From positions 18,662,001 to 18,726,000 of the forward strand of contig NC_134474.1 in NCBI RefSeq assembly GCF_964194025.1: a stretch of DNA of 64,000 nt. Reading direction: 5' to 3'. Both the position numbers and the translations under genes were made by a program. The stretch is from Convolutriloba macropyga. Its lineage: Eukaryota. Shown here piece after piece: positions 10,068 through 62,004 of this stretch (positions within the stretch are counted from its first letter, which is position 1; every line of letters starts with the position of its first letter). Under the pieces are notes generated by a model that searched no databases, was not told the origin of the DNA, and was given only the letters and a program-made list of their open reading frames with translations.

Positions 10068-12304
10068 GGTTAACTGAAGTGATTGAGCAAAATAAGGCTA
10101 TATACAAAACCCACGTATTTATAGAGTAGAAGTTCAGGCAACGCCAGTTAACATTTCTAGAAAGTCTCAAGTTATTTAAGTCTCTCAAGTTATAAACTTT
10201 CCATAAACCAGACCTAATTACACTAACACGATAAACAAAACATTAAAAAGACCGACTAACGTCGGACAAATTGCTCTCTTATCAAGGGGAAGGATGTTAC
10301 TTGCATGGAGTGGGCGTAATAATTTCACTATAGGTCTTCAAATGACGTCAAGTTTGGCAGTCTGACATCATAACGACTCGGCTAAAATGCTTCTGATTTC
10401 GATTAGATCACAATCGGTTTTTTCAAAAAACTTTTCCAACAAAATTTCAGAACGAGAGCAACTTTGATCACTCAGAAAGGAAGAACTAAAGTGCGAAAAA
10501 GTCTATCAAAGTCAAAGAATGTTCTAGAACAAAAGCGCAAAAACGGTAGAGCAAAAACATTGAACAAAAAAGACAAACACGTATACAATAGTTGTTTCAA
10601 ACTTCGTCCTGCGGGGTAGCAATTAATGACCGAATAATTAATTAACATCGCGTAGTCATTGAAGTCTTCTTCAGAAAGCATGCGCGTCTCATTGACACTA
10701 TGATGATTTAAATTGAGTAAGAAATTGCAGCCATTTGAGTTCAACTGCTCTAAAATTCAAATGAGAGAGCAATTTAGATCACCCAAAAATTAAATAAGTA
10801 AGTCAAAACGGCCAAGCAAAAACTTTGCATTGCGCCACACACGACTACAAAATTTACTTCAAACTTCGCTCCACAGCAAAAAAAAGAAACACTCAGTATT
10901 AGTAATTTGGTGACGTGTTTGCTTAGGATTTTGACGGTTCAGGACCGTTCATATTTTAGCAAACATAAAAAATGTGGCAACTTTGTAGACGGCGTAACTA
11001 GCAACGAATATTAGGGTACGCAAAAATAAGCAGAACACCAGATTTGCAATGCTCCGCTTAATTAAGTCGTAATTTCGCTTCGATTTCAACAGAATAAAAA
11101 TTATTAACAGAAACTCTCCAGATATTATATTTGACTGGTGATTTATGACAGATCACCTCAGCAACGGAATAAAAAATTGCTAGATAAACTCACTAATGAG
11201 CACAATGATTGATGTTAAAATATTCGACAGGTAAAAGTGTCCTCGGAATAAATATGTCAATTAATGCAAATAAGTTAATCTTCCAAATTTCGAACGAGAT
11301 ACGATTACTCATTTATTCAATACTCTTGGCTAACAAAGGTCGAATTTGTTACAATCACGAGCGCAAATAGATGTCAGTTGTAGCGAAAGCGTTCGCTAAT
11401 GTTCTTGCCTAACGATACGTTTCAATACTACTCAGAAAGATCGATGGCAAAGCTAAACGTTGGGCATTTTCAGCCGCTTGGGTTAGAATATAGATATAAT
11501 AACTGTGATATGAAGAAATTTAAAGATGCGATTTTCATAGTTATGAAAACAATGATTTAAATGATGATTTATAGATGATAGAGAGAATAGATGTTGAAAT
11601 GAGGGTTTTGCGCACGAATTGAAAGGGCATATTTGAACTCAGCAGTAGGCCAGCAAATAAATGCTCTGGAGGCTCTTAGAAACGTTTACTTCTGCGTTTG
11701 TGTTTTTTTTAGAAGCTTTTATGAACAGAATAAAGCCTCTTTTTTGGTTGAAGGGCTATATTTTAACTAACACTTAATACTTTTTCAGTATCATAACCTC
11801 ATATCCAAATTCAGGCAAAATACTATACTGATAGTGGTACCTCTGTGTTTTCGGAGAGCTCAGGGGGAGGGGACTCCCAAACTTGAACAGAATCCCAGCT
11901 TGAAGACGGTTTAGAAAATAACAATTTCAAAAACAATTTAGTCTATGTTCTTTTCTATTGTATGTGGAAATGTTCACTAACTTGCAATACCTGATTCAAT
12001 TCCCACCAATTTAAAACGCCATCAACTTCAGCTGTAAGAGATAACACGTCTAAAGAACTCATGTGAAAATAATTAATTCGACATATTCATTAAACAGGAG
12101 GAACTTGTAGCAAACAGTTATGTAAAAACATCTATTCTAAACTAACTCTGGGTATCCCCGAATAAATAATTACCCAAAATACAACTCATTTAGATGATTC
12201 AACAATTGATAATTCCAAATGATTGGATTCTTTAGATATGAACAAGAAGCCAGAACTCCTTTGATTCTTTGTCATAGACGCGTGGCAGCTGCTTTGCATA
12301 CAAT

Positions 12305-13147
12305 TCAGTCGTTCTTCAAGGCTTTGTTGTCTGAATTTAGATAAGCGATACTCCAGTTAAGAAAGGTTGCAAAAGTGCACCATGCTAAATATGGATAGAG
12401 TAATCTACTGGCAGTCAGATCCAGAGGTTGGAATTCCTTGATGGTCCAGATAATACTGCCACACAAACCAATCACGATCACTCCTGCCTGAAAATTAAAA
12501 TAACGGATCTTGTCAAAACCTATCTCCTCCTGAGTGAAGGCCAATCAAGTATTGCAGCAATAACACAATCATGTGATTTCATGGTCGAAGGAAATGGTTA
12601 CGATGCGTATGATTTTATATAATTCTGGTATGATTAGTGAATTTAGATTTTTAAATGCTTTCTGTATTATACGTTTTGCAATGCGTGAGAGCTAAGTAAA
12701 TTTTGTTGGCTGGGTTAGCCAACAAAAATGAACTTTTTGTTGGCTAACCCAGCCAACAAAAAGTTCATTTACCATCATATAAAAGCCTTTGAATTCACTC
12801 AATATCTGAAATATTTTACGACAGCTTACAGCTTTAATCCTGTGCATGCCGAAAAATACTGGAGTCCAAGACATGTTCAGAGCCAGTTGGACCCCATAAG
12901 CCGTTAGTGCCATCGAAACGTCAGACGTCTCCCGGAGACTCAGAATCCTGTAAGATGCATATCCCATCATTCCGTACAAAGTGGTCCACACAGGACCGAA
13001 AACCCATCCAGGAGGATTACAAGGTGGTTTGACGAGTTTATTGTACCAGTCTTCTTTGTTCTCCCGTTTGGGGCCAAAAAGAAATCCGTTCGTCATGCCA
13101 CCAATAACTGGCAATACTGTCATCCCTACCGCTTTCCAATTAATCAT
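12305..13147 (-). CDS. TSPO: Translocator protein copy 2, 166 aa, protein identical to copy 1; exons 13147-12830 and 12487-12305
   Basis: Same motifs and splice sites as copy 1. The three coding differences I could see are all synonymous. Confidence 0.95.
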
Positions 13148-14160
13148 GGTTAACTGAAGTGATTGAGCAAAATAAGGCTATATACAAAACCCACGTATTT
13201 ATAGAGTAGAAGTTCAGGCAACGCCAGTTAACATTTCTAGAAAGTCTCAAGTTATTTAAGTCTCTCAAGTTATAAACTTTCCATAAACCAGACCTAATTA
13301 CACTAACACGATAAACAAAACATTAAAAAGACCGACTAACGTCGGACAAATTGCTCTCTTATCAAGGGGAAGGATGTTACTTGCATGGAGTGGGCGTAAT
13401 AATTTCACTATAGGTCTTCAAATGACGTCAATCAGGTTATTTTAGACCACTATTAGAATTTAAAGTGAAATCGCGGCCAATTTTTTGTTTGAATTTGATA
13501 GTAAAACACCACTAATTAATCTCCGCTGTTTAAAATGTGAAAAAGACCACTTTAGAGCACGCAAAAATCCACGGATCTAGAATCCAATTAAATTCAAAAA
13601 ATCAAAAATTTGCATAAGACACGATGGTTGCTTCGAGCATTATTTGAGAGCAATTTTTATCAAAGGCGCAATGCTCTGGAGGAATTTTTCGTCAGACGTA
13701 AGGGGAAGGATGTTGCTTAAAGGTGGCGGGAGCAATAATTTCACTATAGGGTTTCAAATGACATAAATCAGGCTATTTTAGACCACCATTAACATTTAAA
13801 AATCGCGCAATTTTCTGTTCCGACCATTCTTGCGGGGAGAGGAACTATATACTCAAAAAAGTTTTTCTTTTGTTCAGTCGATTTAGTCCAATCGATATAT
13901 TCATCAAAGAGAGTAGTTCTGAGTGGTATCATTAAAAAGCCCTTCCAGCGTAGAATATAGAACTAAAAAGATTTTTTTTTAATTTCGTTTTCTAATATTT
14001 TTTTGAACATTGGACCGATTTGCGTTATTTTTATTCACATTTTAAAGAATTTTTGCGTAAAATTTCGTCAATTTGCTAAAATATGTTAAAATTGTTAACA
14101 ATAGTGTTATTGATTTTATTTTTAAAGTCAAAAATACAAAAATTCAATTACAAAACCAAA

Positions 14161-18855: not shown

Positions 18856-19858
18856 TTAGTCGTTCTTCAAGGCTTTGTTGTCTGAATTTAAATAAGCGAT
18901 ACTCCAGTTAAGAAAGGTTGCAAAAGTGCACCATGCTATATATGGATAGAGTAATCTACTGGCAGTCAGATCCAGAGGTTGGAATTCCTTGATGGTCCAG
19001 ATTATGCTTCCACAAACACAAGTCGCAATCACTCCAGCCTGAAACTTAGACATGAGAGCTCTTGTCAACAATCTGCATGATCTCTCCCTTATAGAGCCAT
19101 GAAAAAATGCGGTACTCACACTTAAAAATTTTAGATCGGTCAATTATTTCCGCATTTCGTCTAGGTTTTCGTGCGATCAAACTAATTATTTCGCTTTCTA
19201 AAATTTCCTATCTGGCAGAACTGGATTTTGATAACCGAAAAAATCAGAACCATAAATCGGCATCATCCAAATTAAAAGCAAGGGACCTCGTCCATTATTT
19301 ATCCTAGAACCATATTACATAAACAAATTACGAACTTCCAACGAAAAGTGAAATACTGGAGCATTCAAGCACTATCTAAAATTAAATTCAATTAATTTCA
19401 AGATTGACAAAACGACAATAAAGACAACTCTTTGCTATAGGCAAGCTTCAAACCTGCGACAGAAATCCACAAAATAATCTAAATATAATAGCCGTAAGCA
19501 AGTCATAAACAATATCTGAAAAAGATATTTTGAAACATCTTACAGTTTTAATCTTGTGCAATGTGAAGAAAACTGGAGTCCAAGACATGTTCAGAGCCAG
19601 TTGGACCCCATAAGCAGTTAGTGCCATCGAAACGTCAGACGTCTCACGGAGACTCAGAATCCTGTAAGATGCATACCCCATCATTCCGTACAAAGTGGTC
19701 CACACAGGACCAAAAATCCACTCGGGAGGGTTACAACGAAGTCTCACGAGCTTATTGTTCCATTCTTTATTCTCCCGATTGCGACAGAACAGAAATCCGC
19801 TCGCCAAACCACCAAAAACTGGCAACGCTGTCATTCCAACCGCTTCCCAATTAATCAT
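18856..19858 (-). CDS. TSPO: Translocator protein copy 3, 165 aa; exons 19858-19544 and 19038-18856
   Basis: TSPO motifs. act|gtaaga donor and tttcag|gct acceptor at the same phase-0 position. Intact frame, TAA stop. Confidence 0.93.
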
Positions 19859-22460
19859 CAAGGTTAACTGAAGTTAATACAGCCGAACAAGGTTAACAAA
19901 AACATGCATAGAGAAAGCAATAACTCAAAAATAAGGGCTGTTGACGTTATTCGACATCTACTTCGATTCCAGTTGAAGAGTGATTAAGAAGTGACTTCAA
20001 CTCGAAGAGCGCATTCTTTCTAACAAAAATAGAGTGCCATTTTTCTGCTGGAGCTCTCGATCAAGTTTGAAGTGGAGCGATCAAAGGCATCTGCAGCCAA
20101 AAATCTTTTTGATAGATTTCAGCTCAAATGGTTACACAGATAGACACATCGATCAAAATTGGATTTAATATGGGCTGCTAAAAAAGTTGACGATTTTCGA
20201 AGAGGCCATGAAAATGTTCGGCAATACATAAGAAGACTTGAGCAGTATAAATCATGTTTTATTTCCAAATTAACGAGGCTGGAAGCAAAAATTGAAGCCA
20301 TAATCTTTAAAATTGCTCCAAATCCATTGCCAGGTGAAATGAGAGCTCTTTAGATACCAAAAATCACAAAGTGAAAAACCAGTACCATAACCAATTGCTG
20401 TCGAAAGATATACTCTCCAAAACAGATAACTCACTAAGAAACCAGATTTGCTTGAAAAGATATAACTTATAGTTTAAAATAACGCACGAAGCAACAGCTG
20501 ATAAAATATACATCTAATTGCTCGCAGCATTATTTATATTGGTCACTCTCTTTATTTAAAAAGTAACCACCGACTTACGCAGCATGATTTGCTTGAAAAC
20601 GACTTGCGAGGGTTGATGGTTCGGCTGTAGTTTTCTTAATCTGAGGGGGGTGGGGGGGGGGGGGCAAAGATGTTCAAAACCTAAAAATTGCTCTTCAAAT
20701 TATGGAATCATGCCTCAGAAGAAAACGAATGACACAAACAATCGCGTCAAAACTAATAGGACCCAAATAATTACTATAAGCCTTGCTTGAAATAAGCAGG
20801 TAAGTAATAATTAATCACCACGTGTCAATTCCAGCTGGAGCCCAAAAACACATGATTGGCTTCAAAACTTTAAATGAGCTCTATGTGTATGCAATAATCG
20901 AGAAATTGCACGTGAAAAAGGTCACGCAACAAAAAATGAAACCAGTATAAAAAGAAAACACAGCCTGAACTCAGCAGAAAGGTAAAAATATGGTCGCCTA
21001 TTTTTGGCGCAAACAGGCAAATTTTAGAGAAAATATCTTCATAAAATTTGAAAACTTTCGAGCTTGATAACCTACGCCATAATCATTTGCTAAAACTGAG
21101 CAGAAGAAAATACGAGGTTGTTCCTTTCAAGTTACTTGCAAAAATTTACCGGCATTTTTCGAATGGAAAACTGAAAGGAGTCCGGAAATGATTGGCTTTA
21201 TCTTGAATGCTTTTATTTTCCTTGTTCTACTATAATAACATGCAAACAAACATAGGAGCACACTCGTGCTTTGGTTTTCCAAAGTTACTGGAAGTCAGTA
21301 TAACTAAACGGTAATACCTTTTGATTGCCTACAATTGTCACTTCATTAATAATTTCCGCCGTTTAGTAGAATTACAACAAAGTTTTAAAAGGATATAGCT
21401 AAAATAGTTTCTAAGAGTGCTGTTTTATACGGCTATTTACTCGCCAATTATTTAAATACGGAACCGAGCGACAAGGTATGTTGTACAGGTGCCATTCCTT
21501 CTCCGAACAAATGGAGGGTAATCGAACCTTCTGAAAATGTGATTTTCGTTTATCAAACAATCGCGCTGTTTTTCAGCAGAGTCATGTTCTGTGGTGTCGA
21601 AAAAGTCAAACAATCTTACAGATATTATAGCAATTTTGAAAATAAGATCGGAACTTGCTGTGCGAAAGCACAGAGAGGCCATGTACGATTTCAATTTTGA
21701 GGCACTAAAACCTATGATGCTCATAAAGGTGTTTCGTAAGGGACGTAAGACCTCAACTTGGGGAAAAAACACGGTTCCCAGACTTTTAGCGCATTAAATT
21801 GTGTGATAAGTATTACATAACTACAAATAATTTGGCTTCATAATAACAATTTCAATGCAAACTACGTGAATAGTACTAAATATTACCTACAAGTGAGATT
21901 GCAATACGTAGTGTTAAATGATACTTTGCAGATTATGTATATAGATCTTTACTATTTGGTCAGTCATAGGTCCATTAGTTTTATTATATTGCCCCTGAGT
22001 CTAAATGGTTCAGTACTTAACGCAAAAGACAAGACCGTTATCGGCAACCAGTAATACAAAATTAAAATGATGTAGGCTCACACAATCGCAACTTGAATAA
22101 ATCGCCAACGTAGTTCGTTGTTTAGTAATAAATCTATAATAAAATTGCCCACCAAAGTTCTTAATCTTCAAAATCCATAATCAAGGAGGAGTGATTTTAG
22201 TTATCAAAGTTATTCATCAAATTTAAATATCGTGAATAGTGTGGCTCCGTATCAAGTTGCGATTTTGACAATCTTGCGAAAGTTTACTGCTGAACAAATA
22301 CACATGCGAGATACTATTTGCCAGCCAGTAGCGATAAAATTTAACGATCACACTATTACTGAGACTTAGTAAATATTATTGAAAGAGTTTGGCCATGCAC
22401 TTCTTTGGCAATTCAGTCTTCAATCTTCGTTCGAAAAGAGATCACATCCTCTAATTTGGA

Positions 22461-24966
22461 TTATTGTTCCTTTAGGGCTTTGTTATCCTCGTTCAGGTAA
22501 GCAACGTGCCATCCGAGGAGAGTTGCGAAGCTGACCCAAGCCATGGCTGGATACATGAGCTGACTAGCCAACTCATCAATCGGGGCAAACTCTCTAATGG
22601 TCATGAAGATTCCACCGGCGAATGCAGTCACTATGGCAGCCGACTGAAAATATGACACCAACAATTAGAAAACAAAAGCAAGAAGTTATTATGGTCATAT
22701 CATTTAAAATGCATCCATTATTTGTCGATGTCCAACTGTCGATGATCTTACGAGAAGGTCTAGGCCAGGAGGAGTGCTAGGAGGATGATCTAACGTGGAG
22801 GAGTGCTCCAGATGACGTACGAGGAGGTCTAAGCCAGGCAACAGAGAAACGCTACGCTACAAAAGCAGGCTTCAATCCATTATTCAACGAATGGCAAGGT
22901 AGATGCAACGTTTTACCATTTTTCTAAGGAAAAATTTTCAAAAATAACAATGATTGATAGCGAGCAAAACCCTGGGAGAGAACATCTACGGAAATTGAGA
23001 GACTATTATGATCGATTCTGCCTCTGAAGTTCTGCGAGCACATAACTTTTACACCCAGGGAATTGGAAAAATTAATTGCAATTAATTGGCTGAAAAAAAG
23101 TAACAATCAATCAATTTAATTGACAATTATATCAATCAGTTATTAAAATAATTGCCATCATAAAGCAGTTAAATTTGACTTTCCATCAATAATTGTTCTG
23201 ATTTTTTAACGAAAAGTGCGCAGATGGCTATACTACCTGTAGCCTTCTTTTTTCATTACAGACGGAAACCATTTATCTATTTACCCTTATTTCAACCGTA
23301 TTGTCCTAAAACTACTTACAACAGAAATTCGTCATCAGGAAAGTTTCTCTCAAGTTTCAGGTTTGCGGCCGGAGAAAAAACTAATTCAATTTTCCTCCAA
23401 TTGGGGGAAATATTTGTGTCGTTCTATAGTAACGCTCTATTCGAGCTCCTAGGAGGGTTCCTCCTAACGTTTAAGTGTCAAGTGCGGTCTTCATGTTTCC
23501 TTTTTTAAATATTTTTCAAGAGTTTAGGTACGCAAGCGTCCGATATTTTGCTAAGATGAGAAAATTACAAGTTCTGAGGATGGCGAATAGTTCTGAGTTT
23601 CACAAAATTCAATTCCAGAAATGAATAATCACTCAAGCAATGCATTTCTTGTTTATACTTTATATTTATATTTTGATCGAATCAAAAATAAGAGCGTTCT
23701 AATAATAGATAGGAAATATTTTCTCTGTTCTGTTTTAGTCTAAGTGTTTATGCTCGACATTGCGGCTAACTAGAAAAGCTATTAGCATCGGTTAGAAAGC
23801 CCATTAAGTGATGAGTTTGAGTCTCTTTTTCAAGTTTCTCGAGTTTTTCAATTGGAAAAAATGCTCAAGTTTTTGCCAATTTCAGTTCCAATTATTTATG
23901 GATCTTTTCTGCTAGCGCCCCCCCCCCGCTTAGTTAGGCACCCCCCATTTATAAATGTGTAAACATATTGTTAAAGCTAAGTAATCTTATACGTGAACAT
24001 ATGAGCAATATGCGCTTACTAAAAGCTAGCACAGCTATGGTTTGAAAGTATTACGTATTCAACCAAAATTTGTTGCATATAACGTAAGCATCAATAAAAA
24101 TTTCTGTATTAGATCATTTCTGGTGTTATCAGCTACAATAAGGGCTTGATTTTTTAAAACTTCTTAAGGAAACTATTCAAAAAGTGCCGTCAATCTACCT
24201 AGACACTCTTGTTTCAATGAAATGCAAATATCGCTCTCACAATTCGCGAAAACTTAGACTTTGGGGGGGGGGGGGTGCAAATTTAACGGCTACATAAGGC
24301 TGGGGGCGCTAGTAGAAAAGATCCTCATTTATTTCAAACCTCTTTCACGCCCCATCCCAACATGATATTTATCTTTCAGAGTAAAGAGCAAGGTAACAAA
24401 TAATTTGTAAGCGGGGTTCATAACAAAGACTGAGGGGCGAAATAGACTGACTATTTTATAATCATGGGGAAATCAGATACTCTGCTTTCGCCGATTTCGC
24501 TTTTCATAGTAGCGAGTTATTTCTCTTTTCTGCGCACAGATCAAATAAAATATCGCAGCCCTAGAATATAATTGCTTGATTCCGTTTGATTTTCGAACAC
24601 TTCACAAAACAAGTGGTTGTGCTAAAAAGGTCAGTGAAAAACCATTACCGTTTTCAGGTGATGAGTTCCGAAGAAGACAGGAGTCCACATCATGCCAATG
24701 GCTAGTTGGGTACCATAGGTTGTCATGGCCCGAGTAACATCAACCTCGCCGCTCTTGCTCAGTATCCTATAGGAGGCAAAGCCCATTAATCCGTAGAGGG
24801 AAGCCCAAACTGGTTTGAAAACCCAGTCCGGTGGATTATAAGCCGGGAATATCAGCTTGTTGTACCAGTCGTTTTTGTCTCCAACTTTAGGACCGAATAA
24901 AGCCCCAGTAGTCGCAGCACATCCAATTGGAAAAACGGTTAATCCGACTGCTTTAAAGCTCATCAT
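22461..24966 (-). CDS. TSPO: Translocator protein copy 4 (divergent), 166 aa; exons 24966-24649 and 22643-22461, 2-kb intron
   Basis: WYNKLIFPAYNPPDWVFKPVWASLY, WTPVFFG and YPAMAWVSFATLL. acg|gtaatg donor, ttttcag|tcg acceptor, same intron position. Confidence 0.92.
23900..24324. mobile_element. MITE in TSPO copy 4 intron (GG-starting TIR, Merlin/Mutator-like)
   Basis: TIRs ggatcttttctgctagcgccccc / gggggcgctagtagaaaagatcc. Flanks ttatttat / tcatttat (7 of 8 match). Confidence 0.8.
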
Positions 24967-25296
24967 CTTGATCAAATCTGAAATAAACTCAAACCGGTAA
25001 CACAGTTAACAAATTAACATAAGCTGACAAACGTCGGATGAATTGTTCTCCAATGACAGGCTACTTAATTCATTGGGGGCGAAGCTCAGAAATGTGTAAT
25101 GGGTTCAAAAAAACTTCTTAAGGTACAACAGCTTTGATTCTCATTCTCTCGCAACAAACTATTTCATTATGAGAGCAACTTAGAACACTCAAAAATAAAT
25201 AAGCGTGGAAAAAAAATTAAATAAAAAGACCCAATCACAGCTATACTGAACGGCAAAATTAATTTAGCAACTACTATTTGCACTAAAGAATTTCTT

Positions 25297-25811: not shown

Positions 25812-26760
25812 TATAGCAGCCGCCCCTGCGCAATATGTATTATCTTTTGTAATTGAGCGTGGTACTTGTTTTAAATACAAGGATTGAAGTTTAATTAATA
25901 AGTAGATAAAAGCAGAAGAGAATGGTTTCAAATAAATGAAGACCTTATTGAGTGATTAACTCTAAGATAGGTTAATTGTTCAATTAATGAGTTTTTTCCT
26001 CAGTTTGGTCCGTACCCAATATCCGTTCTATCACCGCGGTAAAATAACCAAGTAAATACTGATATGTCACAATTGTTTGTATTGCCCGAAGCCCGAGCTT
26101 TGTCTATTTCAATCTGTCGACACCTATCAAGATTGTGTCACTCATTAATCAAGTAATAAAATAAAATTTAAACTAAATCTTTGACCTTGAAACCCAAGGT
26201 GTGTCTTTCCTTCGGCACTCACTCGTCAAGTACTGGTTATAGTTTTCCAACTGCTGAAGTTCTGACCTCAGTTGGTCATTCTCTTTCTCCATTTTCTCCA
26301 TGGCGTCGCTCTTTTTATCAGTATTGACTTTTAGATCGGCCAACTCCTGCTTAAGTAAGTCGATTGACTGCTCTTGTTCGGCATTTCTAGCTGCCGCCGC
26401 CATTAGGTTATCTCATAGCGCCTCACACTCGGCGCTCAGTTTTCCCAATGCTTCTCTTGTTGCCTTTTTGGCTTTTTGGCAATGTTTGTCTAGTTTTTGT
26501 CGAAGCTCGACAAGATCCTTTCGGAGTAAAGAGTTTGTGCTCTTCAATTTCTCTAACTGCGCGCACTGGTTATGCAGTTCCACTTCAGTCTGCAGAGCTC
26601 GGGACTGAATATTGGCGAGTGCCAGAAGTTCTAGTGTAGACACTTTCCGAGTCCGTGACAGACAAGATTCCTCTCAGTACACTCCCGGGGAAATCTCCGA
26701 AATAACTTTCCACAACTCTGGCATATAGTACACCTTTTTTACATACGTGTGACACTCACA
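25812..26760 (-). repeat. 3' LTR of A, interrupted by a ~525-bp copy of internal sequence (26201-~26727)
   Basis: Matches 33158-33616 on both sides of the insert. The insert matches 27222-~27749. Confidence 0.9.
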
Positions 26761-26888
26761 CTGCCCTCTCTCAAAAAGAATAGAGCGTGCCACTGACTCA
26801 CATAAAATCATAAAAATTTTACAGCTCTTAATGCATGAACGTTTTAAAGTTCAAAAAGTTTGTACTTTTCATATAAAAAGTTTAGTTA

Positions 26889-27790
26889 TCAGTTTTCGTC
26901 ATTCATGACTTTCTCTGCCTCCTCCAGCCCGAAAATGTTGTACGCTTCTCGCGCCCCATCGTTCATCAGTATTTGGTATGCTCGACTAATGGTCTTGAAA
27001 AACTCCTCTTCTCCACCAGCATCAGGGTGCGTCAACAAGCTCATTTTGTGGTAGTGTTTTTTGATCTGATCTTTTGAAGCAGAACTTTTTACCAACAAAA
27101 TCTCGTACAATGTCGCAGGCCGATTCAATATATTTTTATTCCGAATCTCGAATAAACACTTTTCTGTGGCCTTCGTTTTGGCTTTCTCGTTCTTCAAGGA
27201 TGCTTTTGTCTATCAATTACAGTGTCTTTCCTTCGGCACTCACTCGCCAAGTACTGGTTATAGTTTTCCAACTGCTGAAGTTCTGACCTCAGTTGGTCAT
27301 TCTCTTTTTCCATTTTCTCCATGGCGTCGCTCTTTTTATCAGTATTGACTTTTAGATCGGCCAACTCCTGCTTAAGTAAGTCGATTGACTGCTCTTGTTC
27401 GGCATTTCTAGCTGCCGCCGCCTTTAGGTTATCTCTTAGCGCCTCACACTCGGCGCTCAGTTTTCCCAATGCTTCTCTTGTTGCCTCTTTGGCTTTTTGG
27501 CAAAGTTTGTCTAGTTTTTGCCGAAGCTCGACAAGATCCTTTCGGAGTAAAGAGTTTGTGCTCTTCAATTTCTCTAACTGCGCGCACTGGTTATGCAGTT
27601 CCACTTCAGTCTGCAGAACTCGGGACCGAATATTGGCGAGTGCCAGAAGTTCTAGTGTAGACACTTTCCGAGTCCGTGACAGACAAGATTCCTCTCAGTA
27701 CACTCCCGGGGAAATCTCCGAAATAGCTTTCCACAACTCTGGCATATAGTACACATATTCACCAATTTGTGGGGTCTCACTGCCTGCTAT
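26889..27790 (-). pseudogene. Element A accessory ORF: small N-terminal domain + coiled coil + C-terminal J-domain (DnaJ)
   Basis: TLYEILLVKSSASKDQIKKHYHKMSLLTHPDAGGEEEFFKTISRAYQIL...REAYN is a canonical J-domain with HPD. It joins the heptad-rich 27194-27664 ORF by a 1-nt frameshift near 27200. One in-frame TGA lies near 27697. Confidence 0.88.
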
Positions 27791-27982
27791 GTTTAACAAA
27801 AACCATTTTTGCTTCTGAAGTTTCTCAATATTTCCAGTCTTGATCTCATTTTTGCTTTCCCCTTATTTTTGTTGGTCTTGACCTCAAGACAACGCTTTTT
27901 AATTTTTTTCTCTTTTTTTGGTCTTGAACTCAAGACAAGTCATTTTCATTTTTTTCTGTCCTGAACTCAAGACAAGTCATTT

Positions 27983-29490
27983 TCATTCATTTGTTTTGGT
28001 CCCGGACTCAAGACAACTCATTTTCATTTCTTTATTTGTTTTTTTTAACACAAACGAAACTTTCAAGGACTCTTTTTCTTCAATCATTTTCTTTTGTTCT
28101 CGGCGCTCATTAACTAATTTTAGTAGTTGATTATACATACGTGTTCCCGTTACAGGGTCGAGATTCCGCAACAGTTGTTGCCAGGAGGCTCCATTAATGA
28201 CTAATCCTAAACGAAAAATCCTAAACGACTAATCTAATAGACGAAAAATTCTGACCCTCTACTAACACAGAAACTTCTTCTGTGCAAAAAGGAAGTTTAG
28301 TTATTGTTGCTACCATCTTTGCACATTTATGAACATATAACACAGATCCTGCTCTTTCGACGAGAGTTCCTTTCTCGAAGAGCGTTACCGATGGTCTAAC
28401 AATGTTTTTTGATATTTCAATCATAGTTTGAATTTTTAGTCGTTGAATCTCGCATTGGAGCGTTCTAATTTTCATTAAAAAATTTCTCTCTCCTTGAGAA
28501 GTTCGAAATTTAAGGTGTCAACAACGCTTGAAAGAAACATTTCCATGGTTATTTTAAGTTTACCAGTTTTCAGTTCTGAACTTTCCTCGGAGTAAAAACA
28601 CCTGGAACTCCAGTTGTTTTCACCTGCTGTCCACACAAACTAATTGCTTTTTCCTCTAAGATTTCTAATGCAAAATCTTCATATTTGTTTTTGTGTAAAA
28701 TTTTTCCGCTGATAAAAGTAGTCTTGTTGTTACCAAAAATTTTTACAGGGTCCTCCTTATTAAAGTGTTTGATCGTTTGACATGTTTGCTCACCTTGTGG
28801 TATATGTGGTTTTGATAAAAACATCTTTCGAGAAACCTAGGGGATCCTTAAATCTTAAGAGGTTTCTTTATATCAGCGTTCCCCAAATTGTTCCGATGAA
28901 AAGTTTTGCATTGATCATCACATTTCCAATAAATTGTACTCCTGTAGGTGAAACCCACTCTACAGGCTTAGCATACATAGCACCTTCACGATTATTTTTT
29001 TTTTCATGAAGCTCTGGCTATGCTCATCGGCATAAGTAGTTTCACTTGCTCTATGTAAAATCTTTTTCGTTACTGAATTGTTGATTTTAAAGATTTTATC
29101 TCCAAACCCTGGTAAAGCAAATTTTTTGTTTTGCCAAATGCTCCTACAGGTTCCCTCGTTTAATGGATATATGGATTTTAGGAGTCTTTAGTTTTTGGTA
29201 ATAAAGACAACATCGTCATATACATTGCTTTTTTTTAGTGCAGACACAGTATATTCCGCTTCATACATGCAAAATCTTAATTTTATCTCGAGCTGAACGT
29301 CAGCATATATCAAACTACCTTCTTCTATTGTTTTCGACACTCGAATTTTGTTATCACAGTTTGTACTGTGATCCAATGAATATATTTTTGTTGATACGAT
29401 ATTCGCCAAAACATAGCCGTAGAATTTAATACGAAGTGAAGGAGAAGCAAAAATGGCTAACAATGCCATATACAAACATAGTGACATTCC
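27983..29490 (-). pseudogene. Element A env-like glycoprotein (class III fusion, chuvirus/gB-like); frameshifted, TM region deleted
   Basis: Signal-peptide-like MSLCLYMALLAIFASPS, then FYGY...YSLDHSTNC and AGSVLYVHKC...FCTEEVSV. Collinear with env of element B. Confidence 0.7.
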
Positions 29491-29804
29491 ATCACACGAT
29501 GCTCCAGACGAACTCGTCCTTCTTTTCGATTCCAATATTTCTTTCTGGGTTTTCCTTAGACAAAAACATCATCAGTTTCCTGGCTGCTAAAGTACTCCTC
29601 ATCTTGCTCAGTAAAGTAATTTTTTAAAATCTCAGGCACCGATTTTAATCGACTGCTAGACCTTGTAGTCATTTTTGTTGCCTTGGGATTACTATTAATT
29701 TTTTTAGTACTTTTTGTTTTACTACTAGATTCCTCTGTCTTTTTTTCTGGTTTTGGAATTTTTGTTTCTGCCTTTTCTTTTCAGTGTAGCTTTTAATGAA
29801 GTTG

Positions 29805-32521
29805 CTACTCCTCCCTCGGGAACATTTTGTGCCTTCTCTTGCCCTTTAGAGGTTTCTTGCTCTGACTCTTTGCTTCATTCTCACACGTTTCTTTTGTAAC
29901 ATTTAGTGAATCGTTAGCATCCTCAGCTTCGGATTGATTTTCTGTGTTTAGATTGCTTTCACTGTCTGTTGATGATTCTATTTCAATTATATCGCCATCG
30001 TCTGAGCTGTTCAAATCGCTATTCTTCTGCTCCTTAATGGTTGTTTTTCGTTTCGCCTAAGGATCAGGCGTGAATGGTTTTTCTCGTGTTTTAAATTTCT
30101 TCATTCGGTCATAATGAACCTTGATAGCTTTCCTCGTCTTTTTATCTTCTACCTTGAAATTCAAATCGTTTATAATTTCAACAATTATGTCTGTTCCTCT
30201 AAAGAAAGAAGTAAATTTTCTTGTTTTTCCTTTTTTAACCGTTGGGTTGAAAACTAACACTTCTTCGCCAACTTTATAACTCGGCCCATACTTACTGCGA
30301 TCATAATATGACTTCTGCTGTTCTTGTTTGACATCCATATACTCTCGCATCAACTGGTGCGTTTCCTGTGGTTTCTGTTTCATCGTGAAAACCAGGTCAC
30401 TTTGCTGCATATTTTGTGGTCTGTGGTGTGCTATAGATGCAGTCTATATGTAGCGACAGTGGAAAACCCAGTACAACAAACGCTGGGTTGTATCTTGTTA
30501 CACTATGAATTGATGATCGATATGCCATCATCGCTAAAGGTAGAAAATTAGTCCACTCGTGTTGTTATTGTCCTATATATTTGGAGAGGCATTCTTCTAT
30601 TGTTCGATTTGTTCGTTCAATCATCGCGTTCCCTTGTGGATGGTAGCATGTGGTTGATGTCCTCTGAATTCCTAGTTCACTGTAAAGACTACGAAACAGT
30701 TTAGACATAAAGTTTGACCCTTGGTCACTGTGTAGGTTGACTGTACAGCCGAATCTTACTATCCAGTGTTAAACAAACGCTTTAGCCACAGTTTTTGCCT
30801 CTTGATTGGGTAACGCTACTGCTTCGTACCACTTAGTGAATTGATCACCGATAAGCAAAATGTACTTGTTTCTGTCAGACTCGGGAAGTGGACCCATGAT
30901 ATCAAGAGATACTTGCCAAAATGGGTGACTAGGTTTCCATTTTGTGAGTGAATGACGATGTTTCTGCTTAGTGCCTTTCCTTTTTAGGCAAACGTCACAA
31001 CTTTCTATCCAGTTTCTTTCGTCCCTTCTCATGCACGGCCAATAAAACCTTTCGCAAGCTTTTTTGTACGTTTTCTCTATACCAAAGTGTCCTGCGCTAG
31101 GCGAATCATGCAACAGTTCAAGAACGTTGGTCACTCTACCCCCGGGGTACCAGCATTTGGTAATTAGTTTCAAAGTTAGGTTCTGTTTGGTGTTTTCGAT
31201 ACAAAATCCCTTCTATGAGAAAAAGATTTTTATACTGAACCCGGTATTTCCATAACTCCTTTGAAGCTCAGTTTCTCATTTGCCGTGGTTTGGGTCTTTT
31301 CTTGTTTATGACCCATGATTATACTTCTTTGAGTATATTGTCACTTTGCTGCGAATACCGCAGTTTTGCTCTCTGTAGTTTGTGTAACTGCCAACCTCGA
31401 CTACTATTGTCGGTACCGTCTTGCTCTACGTCTAGCGCAATAGCGCTAACGAAATCTGTTTGGTCCTCATCTTCTGTGTTTATGCGCGAAAGACAGTCAG
31501 CTTATGGGATTTTTTTCCTGCTCTATGCTTGATGTCAAAATTAAATTGCCCAAGTTTCTCTATCCATCTTGCGGCCATAACGTATGGTTCCTTAAAACTA
31601 TAGATCCGCACGAGAGCCCTGTGGTCCGTTATAATCAAAAAATGCTGACCAAGTAAATAGTTTTTAAAATAATAGGTAAAATGAACTATTGCAAAAAATT
31701 CCCGCTTAGTTGCTGAGTAGTTTCGTTGACTTTTACTCAAAATTTTGCTAGCATGTGCAACAACTTTATCCTCAGTTCCTTGTTACCGTGTAAGGTTTGC
31801 TCCGATGCCTGTCAACGATGCATCGGTAGTTAATGTATATTGATCCCTATCTTTTGGATATCCTGAAACTGGGGCTTCCAAAAGCTTTTTCTTCAACTCT
31901 GCTACCGCACTTGTGCGCTCTGTACTCCATTCAAATTTATTTGATTTATTTAGTAACCTGTAAAGAGTTTCTACTGTTTTTCCGAAACCCGGAATGAATT
32001 TTCGATAATAGCCCACAAGGCTCAGAAAAGCCCTGACGTCTTTTAGGGATGATGGTTCTTTCATTTTTTCTACCGCTCTTACTTTCTCTGGGTCGACCTC
32101 GACACCACTCTCAGATATAATATGTTCTAAAAAGCTGATGCGCTTTTGGAAGAAATTGCATTTTGATCCTTTAATCTTTAATCCGATAAACGATGGAAAA
32201 CCAGCTCTAACCGTTTAAGATGTTCTTCGAAATTTCAAAAACGATAAGGTCGTCTAGATAAACTAAAACTATCTCGTAAGAGAGATCAGCAAAAATTATT
32301 TCCATTAGGTTTTGAAAAGCCCCTGGTGCAGAAGCTAGTCCCATAGGGAGCCTTTTCCACTTATATAGGCCCAAAGGTGTTATAAAAGCTGTTACATTTT
32401 GACTCTCTTCCTCCAACGCCATTTGAAAGTATCCCGACAGAAGATCAATGTTTGAGGAGTACATGTTTCCCTCCAGTGAATCAATAACCTCATTCCACCG
32501 AAAGTGTACGATAGAAATCAA
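29805..32521 (-). pseudogene. Element A pol fragments: RT (32207-32521), RNase H (31480-32064), integrase (30057-31173), acidic tail
   Basis: IDLLSGYFQ..LPMGLASAP..YLDD; TTDASLTGIG; TDHRAL; HDSPSAGHFG..FYWP..CDVC; SLDIMGP; GPSYKVGEEVLV. Confidence 0.93.
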
Positions 32522-32714
32522 TAGCCGACTTTTGTAACCTTAACGCGAAATAATGCGGACGTTCATCAATTTCGGTCTCGGCGCCGTTTACTGTTTCTTT
32601 TCTTTGCCACTTTTGAAGTTGTAATAAGAGCTCAAAGTTTGTAATATAACATTCAGAATCATTTGATCCAGTAAACGGTTCCGGTGACAGCGTTTTTGAG
32701 GAGTGCCGCACCAT
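32490..32714 (-). pseudogene. Element A gag N-terminus, joined to RT by an internal deletion of most of gag and the protease
   Basis: PEPFTGSND..YITNFELL..PHYFALRL..AIDFYRTL is homologous to the gag start of B (PEAFTGSNDLESYVTHFE) and runs directly into RT sequence. Confidence 0.8.
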
Positions 32715-33157
32715 CTTTATTTTATTTAAAAGCTGTTGTTATTCAAAATATTTCACTAATTCTATTCGCAACTCGAACTATTTTTCCGACACTCCAGTTA
32801 ACAGCTTTTAAATATGATTGAAACTCTAATTCCCTCTTCAATAAATGCAAAAAACTCGAGTTTCGATGCTTGAGTTTAAGTCAAATTCAGTCAAATTAAA
32901 TTACTGATATTTCTGAACGCTATTTTTTATCAAAAAAATATGTACGCCCTGATTTATGCTATTCGAATTTTTAGGGAGTCCTCACTTGAAAGTTCCAAGA
33001 TGGCAGTTGTTCTTGTCGAATCCCGACAGCAGTCCACAATTCGTCTTCTGGGTCGTGATGTTAAGACGTCGAACTCGAGTTTAAAAGTTGGAAATTAGTA
33101 CAACGCTCAATATTATTGGTAGGTGGTTTTCTATTTACTTTTAATCTCTGTCGCCAC

Positions 33158-33616
33158 TATATCAGCCGCCCGTGCGCAATATGTATTATCTTTTGTAATC
33201 GAGCGTGGTACTTGTTTAAAATACAAGGATTGAAGTTTAATTAATATGTAGATAAAAGCAGAAGAGAATGGTTTCAAATAAATGAAGACCTAATTGAGTG
33301 ATTAACTCTAAGATAGGTTTTTTGTTCAATGAATGATTTTTTTCCTCAGTTTTGTCCGTACCCAATATCGGTTCCATCACCGAGGTAATTTAACCAAGTA
33401 AATACTGATATGTCACAATTGTTAGTATTGCTCAAAGCCCGATGTCTATTGGCCCATGCTCAAAATGCCCCATGCTTTGTCTAATTCAATCTGTCGACAC
33501 CTATCAAGATTGTGTCAGACATTAATCAAGTAATAAAACAAAATTTAAACAAAATCTTTGACCTTGAAACCCAAGGTTTTTAGTACACCTTTTTTTACAT
33601 ACGTGTGACACTCACA
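33158..33616 (-). repeat. 5' LTR of element A
   Basis: Direct repeat of 25812-26760. Starts TGTGAGTG on the minus strand; the PBS follows after a 1-nt spacer. Confidence 0.92.
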
Positions 33617-34099
33617 TACAATATTTAGCCTATTTACAACTCATATTTACATCCGTTATCAATTTATTTAAAAACATTCCTATTCCGGAATTGTCGATTT
33701 TGGCCATGTCTTTTCAGGGTTATTTCGATTTTGCCCTAAACTTAGGTATCCCTATTGTGGAGGTTTTGCAAACTTCGTTTTGTCATGCACAAAATGTTTT
33801 TTGCCCTATGTATCCTCATCTAGTCAAAATTAAAATTTGAACTAATACTTTAACGTGAGTTACCGCCCCCTATATTTGTAATATCCGTGCACTGTGTACG
33901 GTTACGGGCTGGGTTGGGGGTTTTTCGAAAGCACTTTAAAACCTCGGGGTTACTGATGAAAATCTTCTAAGTCTAAGACTTTAATTAATTATGAAGATGT
34001 AAATATTCAAAACTGTTCAATATAGAGTTAGAATTATTGATCTAAAATACAACAAGATTCAAAAGATGAGAAAGTGTAGAGCTAATAAGAGAAAGACAA

Positions 34100-34806
34100 A
34101 ATTTTGAACAAGTCCTCCCGACCACCCATGTTCGGATGACAGAGCATTGCGAACGTTTGAAATGTTTTTGGATAGTACTGGTTGTGGCCCCCAGTGGCAG
34201 GAATAGAAGCTCATAAAAGTTCGGAGGTAGACTGAACGGGCTCTGCGCTTTGATTGCCTCCAGTCTCTTCTGGATGAGTTTTCTGATATCTATATCGGCA
34301 TTCTCAAAATCCCGAGCTAAACACTCCCGCTCATCCACCAAAGCGATAAATTCTCCTGTCTTTGTTTCGGCTACCTTCGTAACCTCCGCCAACTTTTTCT
34401 TCATTATTTCCACCTGCCTCCTGCAGAACTCCCGCTGATTCCCAGCGTACTCAAGCAGTCCATTGGTCTCAAGCAATTGATCGCTTAACCTTTCACTTTC
34501 AAGTTTTAACTGCCGGAGCTCCTCTTCGAGCCGAGCCCCGGCAGTTCCCAGCATTTCGCTGTTGTCAATCTTCTTTTACTGTTCCTCGATTCTCTGATGC
34601 ATCCCATTTAACTCCATAACACTAATTGCGGCTCTATCTACTATATTTGGTGGTTGCAGCTGCGTCAATGGCACCACGTATCTTTTCTTTGAGGTTACTC
34701 CAACAATCAGATACACTTGGTGCCTGACTATCGACCTGACCTCGAACAACTCGGGTAGATAGTAGCAATAATCGACCATTTTTGGTTCTGCATTCCAACA
34801 TATCAT
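34100..34806 (-). pseudogene. Element B accessory ORF: N-terminal domain + coiled coil + J-domain (C-terminus lost in a deletion into the 3' LTR)
   Basis: 34576-34806 and 34042-34554 are in one frame, split by a single TAA. NFYELLFLPLGATTSTIQKHFK continues after a frameshift as FAMLCHPNMGGREDLFKILS. Confidence 0.8.
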
Positions 34807-34959
34807 ACATTTAAATTAATCTACCAGTCAATCTCAATTTCTGTCATATCTGGTACAGTTTAGCTTTTTTTGCTTTTATAACTACAACGTATGCATTACC
34901 ATCACACAGTTCAACTGTCTTTTTTACTGTCAATTTTCCGTCCTTAGTACGTTGTTTTA

Positions 34960-36885
34960 GATGATGAAAATAACCTAGTTCCCCTATTGGGTTAAATAGT
35001 TAAAGAGAAATTACAGGATTCGTGCCACTGCGTAGCATATCGATTGAAAGAAACACACGTACTAAACAAAATATGATTTTCGATCCGAAAAAAATTGCCA
35101 TCAAACTAATGGTTATTTCCCTGGCCACATGCCAGACTTGTTTCACTTCACTAACTAAAATTCAAAAATCAGCAATCCATGCCACTGGTGATTGTACTTC
35201 AAGTCCGTGTTGAAATACTCTAGAGTCTCATGCTCATATAAGCCTCCTTGTCCCAGGAAAACTTCTCCTCATGTAATCGTTTTTCTCAAATGCCTTAATC
35301 TTTGGGCCCTTTTGCTCAATTCTAGGCCTTTGTCATTGAAAAATTCTTCCATTGGCGCGGAGGTTGACCAATTGACGCTAGCTCTGTAATTAGGCATATC
35401 ATTGGGTTTAACAATCAGTTGTATTCGTCTGGCATATGTTATCCATGACCCATTCTGCAATTCAAGAGCAATCGAGTACATGGGGTTGCAATTAATTAGT
35501 GTGAAATTTCAATAGAATACTCTAGAAGCAGGGTCCATGTATCTAATTCCTTCTGAACTGTTGTCAGAAGACACCCTAATTGGTACTTCCTCGGTACAAA
35601 ACTGGTTTTCGACAGCATGTACGATAAATTTAGCGCACCTATGGACATAAAGTCTTCCTCCAGCTCTTTCTGCGTGTGTACCTAGAGCGTTTTGTTGGTT
35701 TAGGGAAATTTGGTGTGAGTTCCCGTTAATTGGTGTCGTTAAAATCATAGCTCTGTGCAGTGTTTCTATGTGAAAGTTTAATAACTCTATTTGTTTCAGA
35801 TTTTCAAACATGCCTCAAAAATCCCACACAAAAAGTAGATCAAGTTTTATGTCCCTGAGATCTGTAAAACAAATTTCTGTGATTTGTTTCAAAATGCAGA
35901 AAATTGTCTATCTGTTTTGTCTTGTTTTTCAACTGAACATCTATATTTATTTTTCTGTCTAATTTGCTCTTCAAATATTTTTCGTTTCCAGCGCGGACTA
36001 TTTTTGCTGTTATCGAGTCTGAAAATTTAACTATCGTTAAGATACTTGGTTTTTTGTCTTGGTCGAACAAATATTGTACTGAATCTATTTCAAATGTGTC
36101 TCCTTGATATAACAAGGTCTGCTCCTGTTTCAGAGGGTCTTTAAAATATAACCATTTTTTCAGAGGGTCTTTAAAATATAACCATTTTTAAAATATAACT
36201 GGTTATATGAAATATAACCAGTTTCTTCATTTGCTTCCCTAATTTCAATGAACAAAGTCCCGATGAAAATTTCAGCATTTATCATGATGTTACTTTTCTG
36301 TGTTATTTGTGCAACTTTTGGATTGATCCAATCCACGGGGTAGACATAATTCTTTCCTTTCTCATCTCCGCCTTTCATGAATGTTTTTGATACCTTTTGA
36401 AAAAACTCTGCGTCAGTTCGGTTAACATTCATCTCATCAAGGACTTCTTTAGGAGATTGAATTTAAAGTCACCAAGACACGGTAACCGCGTTTTGTGTCC
36501 CTGCCAAAGGTTTTGGCAGACTGATTCTTTTATTGGGTAAAACGTTAGAATTATTTGTGATTTTTTGTTAGGTAAGTTGCGTCGTCATACCAAACACTTT
36601 TTTTTTCAGCACAGTTACCGTATATGCAGCCCTGTACATGCAGTATTTTAGTTTACTCCTGCTGCCTTCGGCGTAGATGAGTCCTCCTTTGTTTACCTGC
36701 TCCTCATTTATATGTAACTTTTCGCATTTCGTTGGTTCCGTCATGTCAAATTTTTGCGTCTGCAGAATGTTCTCAAAATCATACCCCGCAATCTCCAAGG
36801 ATTGTTAAGAACAAACTATGATAACCATTTGGAGAAGCTTCCAGTTCAGCTGCACGTTCCAATGTGGTCTTCACGCCCTCTGCAT
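34960..36885 (-). pseudogene. Element B env-like glycoprotein (class III fusion, chuvirus/gB-like), roughly 630 codons, frameshifted
   Basis: IAGYDFEN..KFDMTEPTKC; KYCMYRAAYTV; AGGRLYVHRC..FCTEEVPI..YMDPASRVFY; CNPMYSIALELQNGSW. C-terminal hydrophobic helix ITISLMAIFFGSKIIFCLVRVFL near 35050-35120. Confidence 0.75.
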
Positions 36886-37013
36886 TTTGTCGTATCACCT
36901 TTTTAAAAAAATACATCATTGTCAAACATTTCATCGGAATCGTTATCCTTGAATAAAAAATAGTCTTTGAGTTACCGTGGTCTTGTTATTCCCGACGCAC
37001 TTCTTGTTTGATA

Positions 37014-61630: not shown

Positions 61631-62004
61631 TATTAGAGTAGTGATTCGTGGTGCGAGTGTGCGTAGAAATTATTACTTAGTGATTCGCGGTGCAAAATCC
61701 TGATTCAATTTGTTCGCGCTCACTCGCGGAGCGGAATTCAAGAAGAGAAATTGGTGAACTGATTTTGAAATGCAAAATTAAAGAGAATGAAGTTTAAGGA
61801 AATATAAAGCACTTGTAAACAACGTAAATGCGTGATCAGACATGTCTGATTACGGGGCGGGAAACCAAGCAGAAAGTTAACAGCAGATTACAAGACGCGA
61901 ACTGAACAAAATATGAAAAGCAAATAAATGAACTAAATTTAGGGAACCACATAAGATATACTGCATCAAACAAATTAATGAATAAAGATACATCAGGTAT
62001 CACA
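61631..62004 (-). repeat. 5' LTR of D
   Basis: Direct repeat of 55191-55564. Confidence 0.92.

Follow-up and report, generated by a model that had tools for sequence, protein, structure and literature searches.

Two decayed Ty3/gypsy LTR elements, A (25812–33616) and B (33877–43140), lie on the minus strand of the window, a stretch of 64,000 nucleotides from Convolutriloba macropyga. In each, the integrase is followed by an env gene, and env by a fourth open reading frame, ORF4. We read env as a homolog of class III fusogens and ORF4 as an Hsp70 co-chaperone of the element, an explanation to which sequence and structural models lead us to assign a probability of roughly 0.72. This type of env has been described before; what makes the element new is ORF4, which is also the more important of the two genes. 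In the general view, retroelements rely on chaperones borrowed from their host, and ORF4 would be a selected J-domain protein encoded by an LTR element itself. It would offer a handle on whichever life-cycle step is limited by Hsp70, be it the assembly or uncoating of particles, the handling of the envelope or evasion of small-RNA silencing. The env genes carry little weight by comparison, being a further divergent subgroup of a class that a 2026 survey already covers.

Both window copies are dead, with broken coding regions (Table 1). The LTRs of A are 93.8% identical over 389 aligned bases, contigs of a sequencing run connect 33616 to 26768, and the element sits between 4-base copies of its duplicated target site (TGTA). 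The start of its gag is fused directly to the middle of the reverse transcriptase (RT), with most of gag, the protease and the RT N-terminus gone and RNase H and integrase following. Its ORF4 has one stop and one frameshift, and a second copy of 533 bases of ORF4 DNA (26201–26733, 98.1% identical) splits its 3′ LTR. In B, the env gene is split into at least six frame pieces with several stops, and the J-domain of ORF4 is frameshifted, reads HPN in place of HPD and ends abruptly at the terminal repeat. The primer-binding site of B, at 42918, shares its first ten bases with that of A. At the 3′ end of B we found neither a preceding purine tract nor an exact target-site duplication, and contigs with unlike flanks start at 33876–33877 in sequencing run X5; because of this irregular end, B may be a composite element. 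The LTR of a third, A-related element starts at 45341, with an assembly gap upstream, and its ORF4 remnant matches Pfam DnaJ at E 3e-12. Rfam gave no match within the window.

Table 1 Positions of the retroelement features in the window.
Feature	Position	Strand	Basis and remarks
A 5′ LTR	33158..33616	-	alignment; start TG, end TATA; primer-binding site at 33156
A gag-pol remnant	29870..32730	-	six-frame reading and Pfam; end approximate
A env, class III type	28076..29490	-	four frame pieces to ~28230, deletion through TM helix, post-TM tail
A-rich tandem repeat, 37–46-base units	27867..28033	.	between A env tail and A ORF4
A ORF4	26889..27860	-	small N-terminal domain, coiled coil, C-terminal J-domain with HPD; start approximate
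A 3′ LTR	25812..26760	-	purine-rich tract precedes it
B 5′ terminal repeat	42920..43140	-	TG...CA, ~222 bases
B gag-pol	37200..41898	-	zinc knuckle, RT, RNase H, integrase; many stops and frameshifts; end approximate
B env, class III type	34820..36850	-	near full length; Pfam PF24664; ends approximate
B ORF4	34098..34815	-	N-terminal domain, coiled coil, J-domain
B 3′ terminal repeat	33877..34098	-	90.5% identity to 5′ copy
Third, A-related element, 3′ end	44908..45760	-	J-domain end of ORF4, purine tract, LTR

By domain order and Pfam models, A and B are Ty3/gypsy and not BEL/Pao elements. The Pfam domains RVT_1, RT_RNaseH, Integrase_H2C2 and rve follow one another in both, which is the Ty3/gypsy order, with RT_RNaseH_2 directly before Integrase_H2C2 in A. 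Domains of BEL/Pao type include Peptidase_A17, DUF1759 and DUF5641; none of the BEL/Pao models reached E≤0.01 in the six gag-pol frames scanned, where Gypsy-type models were strong. Pfam detected no protease in the gag-pol of A or B, the region being deleted in A. The best solved-structure match of the RT-RNase H piece of A is Ty3 (E 9e-15), and no BEL/Pao RT occurs among the PDB hits. An LTR pair, primer-binding site, purine tract and target-site duplication are all present in A, and B retains the terminal repeats and primer-binding site. A database sequence, P0191, joins a Ty3-like RT to the same type of env, so the linkage of Gypsy pol and this env is independent of the window.

ORF4 comprises a small N-terminal domain, a long coiled coil and a C-terminal DnaJ J-domain. 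The Pfam DnaJ model matches A ORF4 with E 7.6e-17, its HPD intact, and P0051, a relative of the B family, with E 1.1e-6; the HPD of B and that of the third copy are altered. The N-terminal domains of A and B, and the J-domains of A and P0051, align with scores reached by 0 of 2000 shuffles each. In the model of a database homolog, a helix of 145 residues is predicted with pLDDT >90, and the J-domain superposes on that of Sis1 with an rmsd of 1.9 over 68 columns. Databases hold at least 117 relatives, 35 of them labelled DnaJ, and HPD is kept in 22 of the 28 in which the site was found. For the single pair available, the J-domains of A and the third copy (78 codons), dN is 0.095 and dS 1.13, giving a dN/dS of 0.08 (Fisher p 1e-12), and by this sequence measure purifying selection acts on the J-domain. 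Env and ORF4 sequence are joined in other copies too, as P0051 and P0194 show, and the adjacency of the two genes is therefore not peculiar to the window. Taken with the structural model, this sequence evidence makes an element-encoded Hsp70 co-chaperone the most likely identity of ORF4. For the N-terminal domain, the best Atlas score is 0.78, to unnamed clusters, and a PDB search gave no hit; an SH3/Tudor-like barrel, considered as a candidate, is unsupported, as pLDDT is <50 for residues 1–74. The span covered by a preliminary description of this DNA, 27983..36885, ends before ORF4, which was missed there.

The junction between env and ORF4 allows a different reading, in which ORF4 is a cytoplasmic extension of Env, produced in one frame or by stop-codon read-through. 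The product would be a membrane-tethered J-domain fusogen and, if so, the fusogen itself would recruit host Hsp70 to sites of budding or entry, or for the uncoating of particles. Env tail and ORF4 are in register in the B family, where the natural protein P0082 reads on past the TM helix as far as the opening residues of ORF4, as translated in window copy B. The junction codon is sense in P0082 but a stop in the other two of three B-type copies (window B and P0026), with a Met a few codons on. In the A family, 9 of 117 ORF4 relatives have a frame that stays open for over 15 residues ahead of the conserved YYMP motif, and in two of them it reaches back into the A-rich repeat, where the env tail frame of window copy A ends. 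Against this, the intact env relatives P0044, P0180, P0192 and P0104 end with an ordinary tail, and no long fused protein appeared among 139 hits of any length or in a search, itself weak, of proteins of 451–2000 aa. On balance we regard such an extension as unlikely.

A second alternative concerns the purpose of the J-domain. Complex retroviruses have accessory genes similarly placed beyond env, where ORF4 also sits, and ORF4 might serve counter-defence, its J-domain acting as a decoy for the Hsp70/Hsp90 machinery by which small RNAs are loaded onto Argonaute/Piwi. The very high copy number (~26,000–30,000 contigs match the stretch in each of two sequencing runs) is compatible with such a role, as is the requirement for an Hsp40 in RNAi-dependent silencing in fission yeast, as stated in the available text of PMC5985592. 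However, the conserved HPD suits an active co-chaperone at least equally, and we judge this role to be improbable, on a par with an extended Env.

The env genes of A and B are homologous, as the preliminary description had proposed: an N-terminal piece is 36% identical over 66 aa and a core 51% over 43 aa, each with 0 of 2000 shuffles scoring as high, and the motifs quoted there are found in the sequence. Its signal-like N-terminus holds for A (Kyte-Doolittle mean 2.11 over 15 aa), whereas in B the stretch is weaker (1.65–1.78) and interrupted, hydropathy being the measure in both. On the same measure, B has a TM-like stretch near 35060–35120 (mean 2.23 over 19 aa), as described, and A has none after the FCTEEV motif in any of the three frames (best mean 1.17). 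A profile (A4) built from 23 homologs matches A at positions 5–427 and weakly at 582–637, and matches B at positions 12–619 in six frame pieces. Since 428–581 is missing in A and covered in B, A has indeed lost everything between the FCTEEV motif and the far end of the TM helix, from mid-ectodomain through the TM. The asserted likeness between the tails of A and B is not significant in direct comparison (267 of 2000 shuffles score as high). The tail of A is clearly the post-TM tail all the same: its match to the C-terminal end of P0104, a natural homolog, is reached by 0 of 2000 shuffles. An assignment to the motif right after FCTEEV fell away, as 178 of 2000 shuffles scored as high.

By sequence and predicted fold, env is a class III, gB/chuvirus-like fusogen homolog and not a baculovirus F protein, which bears out the earlier family call. 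Pfam Monjiviricetes_fusion (PF24664) matches B env above its cut-off (E 6.3e-8) and a short core piece of A env weakly (E 0.009), and env is collinear with the intact homolog P0192 along most of its length. All folds were computed on database homologs, none on window sequence. The model of one intact homolog, P0044 (pLDDT 69, pTM 0.38), matches herpes gB in Foldseek with E 2.6e-12, all of the ~38 rows among the matches listed being gB, and the predicted structures of chu-, xinmo- and qin-like virus G with E 5e-30. VIA-align ranks gB first (Z 7.3, rmsd 27, 397 aligned). The TM-scores to gB are low, 0.2–0.36. Atlas features score 0.97 to PF24664 clusters. A PDB sequence search with the env profile gave no match at E≤1, and the gB likeness is thus visible by fold only. 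The best match was not to baculovirus F-type env: F-type Pfam models were absent from five env pieces (E≤1) and 19 homologs, and the top structure matches of the env homolog are all of another fold class. Intact homologs have both a signal-like start and a TM helix.

Intact multi-copy relatives of env exist: in the P0180 cluster, 11 of 15 listed members are 684 aa long and one sequence occurs on 13 contigs. For the A and B families themselves, intact env genes did not turn up; among 139 hits, the longest at ≥45% identity is 338 aa, and a word-index search with the B env core among proteins of 451–2000 aa, a weak search, found nothing. Loci of relatives were recovered for 0 of 87 candidates in JGI metagenomes and for 1 of 89 in a second search, the one being a 2175-base contig with env only, and for 0 of 6, 0 of 5 and 0 of 85 in IMG/VR.

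The preliminary description took gB- and chuvirus-like env to be mainly a BEL/Pao trait and inferred an independent acquisition here; the first view does not hold, and the second goes against the published reading. The available text of Chary and Hayashi (eLife 2026, PMC13524379) reports Ty3/gypsy elements with a gB-type, chuvirus-like env from throughout the animals, finds this env equal to the F-type in abundance and spread in metazoan Ty3/gypsy elements, and reads it as an ancient inheritance. In 114 elements from one search there, gypsy pol has as its neighbour the chuvirus-like glycoprotein that mosquito BEL/Pao elements carry. As far as that text goes, A and B share with gB-type errantiviruses the Ty3/gypsy pol, gag-pol-env order, LTRs, tRNA primer site, multi-copy state and an env with signal, class III ectodomain and TM helix, and differ in the post-env ORF with coiled coil and J-domain. 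The survey searched for gag, pol and env only, dead copies such as A and B would fail its intact-ORF filter, and 'DnaJ' does not occur in its main text and seven supplements. Anakin, a mosquito BEL/Pao element (Dezordi et al. 2020, PMC7642597, available text), likewise has a chuvirus-derived, PF24664-type glycoprotein inside its LTR boundaries, whereas the pol of A and B is Ty3/gypsy and their env a distant subgroup. With the class III fusogens of chuviruses, xinmoviruses and herpesviruses, the modelled env homolog shares predicted fold and domain order, but sequence identity is 9–16%, and the env of A and B is a putative fusogen encoded by a retroelement.

These data also bear on the original proposal that a chuvirus or BEL/Pao glycoprotein was captured independently and recently, founding a new infectious Gypsy lineage. 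Negative-strand RNA virus glycoproteins are the best predicted-structure matches, the env clade is remote from the core of the Pfam family (77 bits for P0044 vs 159–231 for five other members), and six of its motifs are missing from the sequence supplement of PMC13524379, a weak test on gapped alignments in the part available. We nevertheless consider capture distinctly unlikely, given the age and breadth of gB-type env in Ty3/gypsy elements reported there. The env clade is also deeply diverged internally (29–76% identity), and a capture would therefore not be recent. A tree of the env core (21 rows) groups A, B and the intact homologs with support of 91/89, below threshold; for that reason, and because its branches are long and it holds no named references, it is silent on origin.

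Very improbable, and largely refuted by the dN/dS of 0.08 at the level of sequence, is that ORF4 is a passive passenger, either a piece of a host gene or an insertion of unrelated DNA. Transduction of host sequence is common in LTR elements, every window copy is broken, and the ORF4 relatives, all at least 46% identical, may share one host. Yet A and B, which are 63% identical in integrase and 25% in ORF4 and are saturated at synonymous sites, have ORF4 in one and the same place, and in A it lies within the LTR pair and target-site duplication.

Under the preferred reading, active ancestors would have carried env trimers on budding particles, which env would let into neighbouring cells, for example germ cells. 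ORF4 would act in the cytosol as a soluble J-domain protein of class C. Its N-terminal domain and coiled coil would bind a component of the element, on which its HPD loop would trigger the ATPase of host Hsp70. Up to this point the chain, comprising class III homology of env, conservation of ORF4 and the inferred roles of env and Hsp70, appears highly probable. The candidate client is the element's own particle, through assembly or uncoating of the Gag lattice, or the RT complex; this last step we place slightly below even odds, and no result indicates a specific client.

Polyomavirus T antigens recruit host Hsp70 through an HPD J-domain of their own, and ORF4 would be another case of a mobile element with a self-encoded HPD J-domain. 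Such virus-encoded J-domains appear in titles cited in the available part of PMC7356129. The T antigen J-domain is N-terminal in a DNA-virus regulator, whereas that of ORF4, a retrotransposon protein, is C-terminal and preceded by a long coiled coil. Bdelloid LTR elements also have extra family-specific ORFs after pol, some with coiled coils (PMC5408684). According to the available text, these ORF3 genes encode GDSL esterases, DEDDy nucleases and TM or coiled-coil proteins, with no occurrence of DnaJ, and stand in place of env, whereas ORF4 of A and B comes after it. We could not find a J-domain ORF in LTR elements in the literature searched, which covers few subscription papers or Repbase reports and in which absence is not proof; such a co-chaperone ORF in an env-bearing LTR element is apparently undescribed. 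A DnaJ passage in the available text of PMC9940879 is unrelated. Because intact natural ORF4 proteins exist, in a cluster of 63 members, the biochemistry can be tested without the broken copies.

Across the window the DNA is AT-rich, repeat-packed and eukaryotic, and its minus strand carries two decayed LTR elements, A and B, arranged in tandem. A host gene family with introns and Penelope-like remnants are consistent with an animal source. In both elements, the Pfam domains follow the Ty3/gypsy order of reverse transcriptase (RT), RNase H and integrase, and none of BEL/Pao type is detected in any of the six gag-pol frames scanned; the best solved-structure match of the RT–RNase H piece of A is Ty3. 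The LTRs of A are 93.8% identical over 389 aligned bases, with a primer-binding site two bases past the 5′ LTR, a purine tract ahead of the 3′ LTR and a target-site duplication of 4 bases, and the protease is gone from the element, along with most of gag and the beginning of RT. B has terminal repeats of 90.5% identity, a primer site that shares its first ten bases with that of A and an irregular 3′ end. Because the integrase cores are 63% identical and their synonymous sites are saturated, A and B represent separate families rather than recent copies of one; both are dead. Their families are very abundant: ~26,000 and ~30,000 contigs from two sequencing runs map to a 16-kb stretch and cover env, ORF4 and pol alike, a depth that is not a copy number.

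Features of the window (positions are window positions)
Feature	Position	Strand	Content
Element A	25812-33616	minus	LTR pair, primer-binding site, purine tract, target-site duplication
ORF4 of A	~27860-26889	minus	N-terminal domain, coiled coil, J-domain with HPD; Pfam DnaJ E 7.6e-17
ORF4 duplicate	26201-26733		533-base copy of ORF4 coiled-coil DNA
Spacer between B and A	33620-33876		~250 bases
Element B	33877-43140	minus	bounded by 222-base TG...CA repeats
ORF4 of B	34815-34098	minus	A-like parts, frameshifted, cut short
Endonuclease remnant	43524-44493	minus	GIY-YIG, Pfam E 1e-6
Third element end	44908-45760	minus	J-domain, Pfam DnaJ E 3e-12
Other LTR lineage	53600-64000	minus	nested remnants
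Tandem array	47559-52823		three units of ~1.75 kb
Tandem duplication	869-5075		2.1 kb
TspO/MBR copies	9612-10097, 12692-13177, 19448-19873, 24631-25005	minus	four in tandem

The terminal repeat of B, also found at 43140, starts at 34098 exactly where the J-domain of B is cut off, without a purine tract; the complete last J-domain helix is present in another B-type copy, P0051, and the 3′ end of B may reflect a deletion or a solo-LTR insertion. Read-contig depth reaches its maximum for the window in the spacer between the elements (138,000-184,000 at 33690 versus ~30,000 elsewhere). This spacer starts with a purine-rich tract and may be a fragment of some other highly abundant repeat or LTR that served as the insertion site of A. 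Within the 3′ LTR of A, the ORF4 duplicate is 98.1% identical to its source and thus younger than the insertion of A, whose LTRs diverge by 6.4%.

The preliminary description had assigned the env genes to a class III, gB/chuvirus-like family, and this assignment holds. The core env piece of B matches Pfam Monjiviricetes_fusion at 31.5 bits (E 6.3e-8; cut-off 27 bits), and a short piece of A matches it weakly (E 0.009). Searched without length restriction, the B piece retrieved 139 proteins; the close matches are all fragments (338 aa for the longest at no less than 45% identity) and full-length PF24664 proteins make up the long ones. A group of 14 proteins, mostly full length, was reached through one of the latter, P0044; its member P0192 aligns to A as well as to B, beginning at the signal region. 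The fold was predicted for the intact homolog P0044 and not for the window sequence (mean pLDDT 69, pTM 0.38). In the Foldseek comparison that had been suggested, every PDB match listed is a herpesvirus gB (best E 2.6e-12, TM ~0.2); among predicted viral structures, glycoproteins of chu-, xinmo- and qin-like viruses come out on top (E 5e-30), and in a wide VIA search gB takes the first six ranks and rhabdovirus G follows, with middling Z scores (7.3 to 5.7) and large rmsd. For the family, class III membership thus has good support, and sequence homology extends it to the window env.

A 23-homolog env profile covers B at positions 12-619 in six frame pieces and A at 5-427 in four, skips 428-581 in A and returns weakly at 582-637. 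The gap means that neither the ectodomain end nor the TM helix is left in A, in agreement with the loss described earlier. The supposed resemblance between the A and B tails is not borne out, direct comparison being no better than chance (267/2000 shuffles); the match of the A tail to the C-terminus of the natural homolog P0104 was equalled by none of 2000 shuffles. The deletion is peculiar to the window copy: in run X1, 31 contigs depart from the window sequence at 28211, and the natural proteins P0194 and P0104 have a TM end joined to an A-like tail. P0191, in which a deletion has joined a Ty3-like RT to an env of the window's subgroup, and an intact 684-aa env of that subgroup, letter-identical on 13 contigs (P0180 cluster), show that the subgroup belongs to Gypsy elements with a recent expansion somewhere.

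Such an env had been regarded as mainly a BEL/Pao trait. That premise is out of date: Chary and Hayashi (PMC13524379) read the association of gB-type env with Ty3/gypsy as ancient. The class III env in Ty3/gypsy is real but already known. Six short motifs of the window's subgroup are absent from the sequence supplement of that paper, a weak test of whether its set includes this subgroup.

Overlooked previously was a fourth open reading frame, ORF4, lying beyond env and ahead of the 3′ LTR in both elements, just outside the interval first described in A and inside it in B. ORF4 of A and B share 25% identity over 165 aligned residues; their N-terminal domains beat 2000 of 2000 shuffles, as does the J-domain of A against P0051. 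Restricted to proteins of 121-387 aa, a search gave 117 relatives; 35 carry a DnaJ label, and HPD is intact in 22 of the 28 whose site the pattern located. None falls below 46% identity, and judging from contig sizes they may come from one host; one cluster has 63 members, including several full forms of 285-306 aa. In the P0194 model, residues 78-222 form a long helix, the J-domain matches that of Sis1 with an rmsd of 1.9, and the N-terminal part is predicted at low confidence. The J-domain is under purifying selection: in the 78 codons compared between A and the third copy there are 7 differences at first, 8 at second and 30 at third positions, which gives a dN/dS of 0.084.

The main text and seven supplements of PMC13524379, which describes HSV/gB-type errantiviruses, contain no occurrence of "DnaJ". 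By virtue of its J-domain ORF after env, the A/B element type is a new form of the known gB-env Gypsy elements. The term is likewise absent from the bdelloid accessory-ORF paper (PMC5408684), and full-text literature searches, with subscription papers and Repbase entries outside their scope, listed no LTR element described as carrying a J-domain ORF.

Class III fusogens form trimers and bring about membrane fusion, and in J-domains the HPD motif triggers ATP hydrolysis by Hsp70 on a client held by other domains. The active ancestors of A and B would have made enveloped particles, and ORF4 may have directed host Hsp70 onto a component of the element. The most likely target is the element's particle, to which we assign a probability of roughly 0.45. 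It is improbable that ORF4 was made as part of an Env-J fusion, directly or by read-through. In the B family the two frames, env and ORF4, share one register, with a sense codon at the junction in one of the three copies seen and a stop in the other two; in some A-family relatives the ORF4 frame stays open upstream as far as the repeat 3′ of the env tail. Intact env relatives have ordinary ends, and no fused Env-J protein occurs among the 139 matches of the B env piece. That ORF4 acted on the small-RNA loading machinery, and not on the particle, also seems unlikely.

Elsewhere in the window, the GIY-YIG remnant, which we take to be Penelope-like, lies behind RT-like sequence directly upstream of the 5′ repeat of B. 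The remnants of the different LTR lineage include RT and integrase in an 869-codon frame, and no env was seen in them. Neither the three-unit array nor the 2.1-kb duplication contains an Rfam match or a long ORF. Pfam confirms three of the four TspO/MBR (translocator protein) gene copies (E ≤ 4e-25); the copies have an apparent intron past the first exon, and two lie within a 3.1-kb duplication of 94.7% identity.
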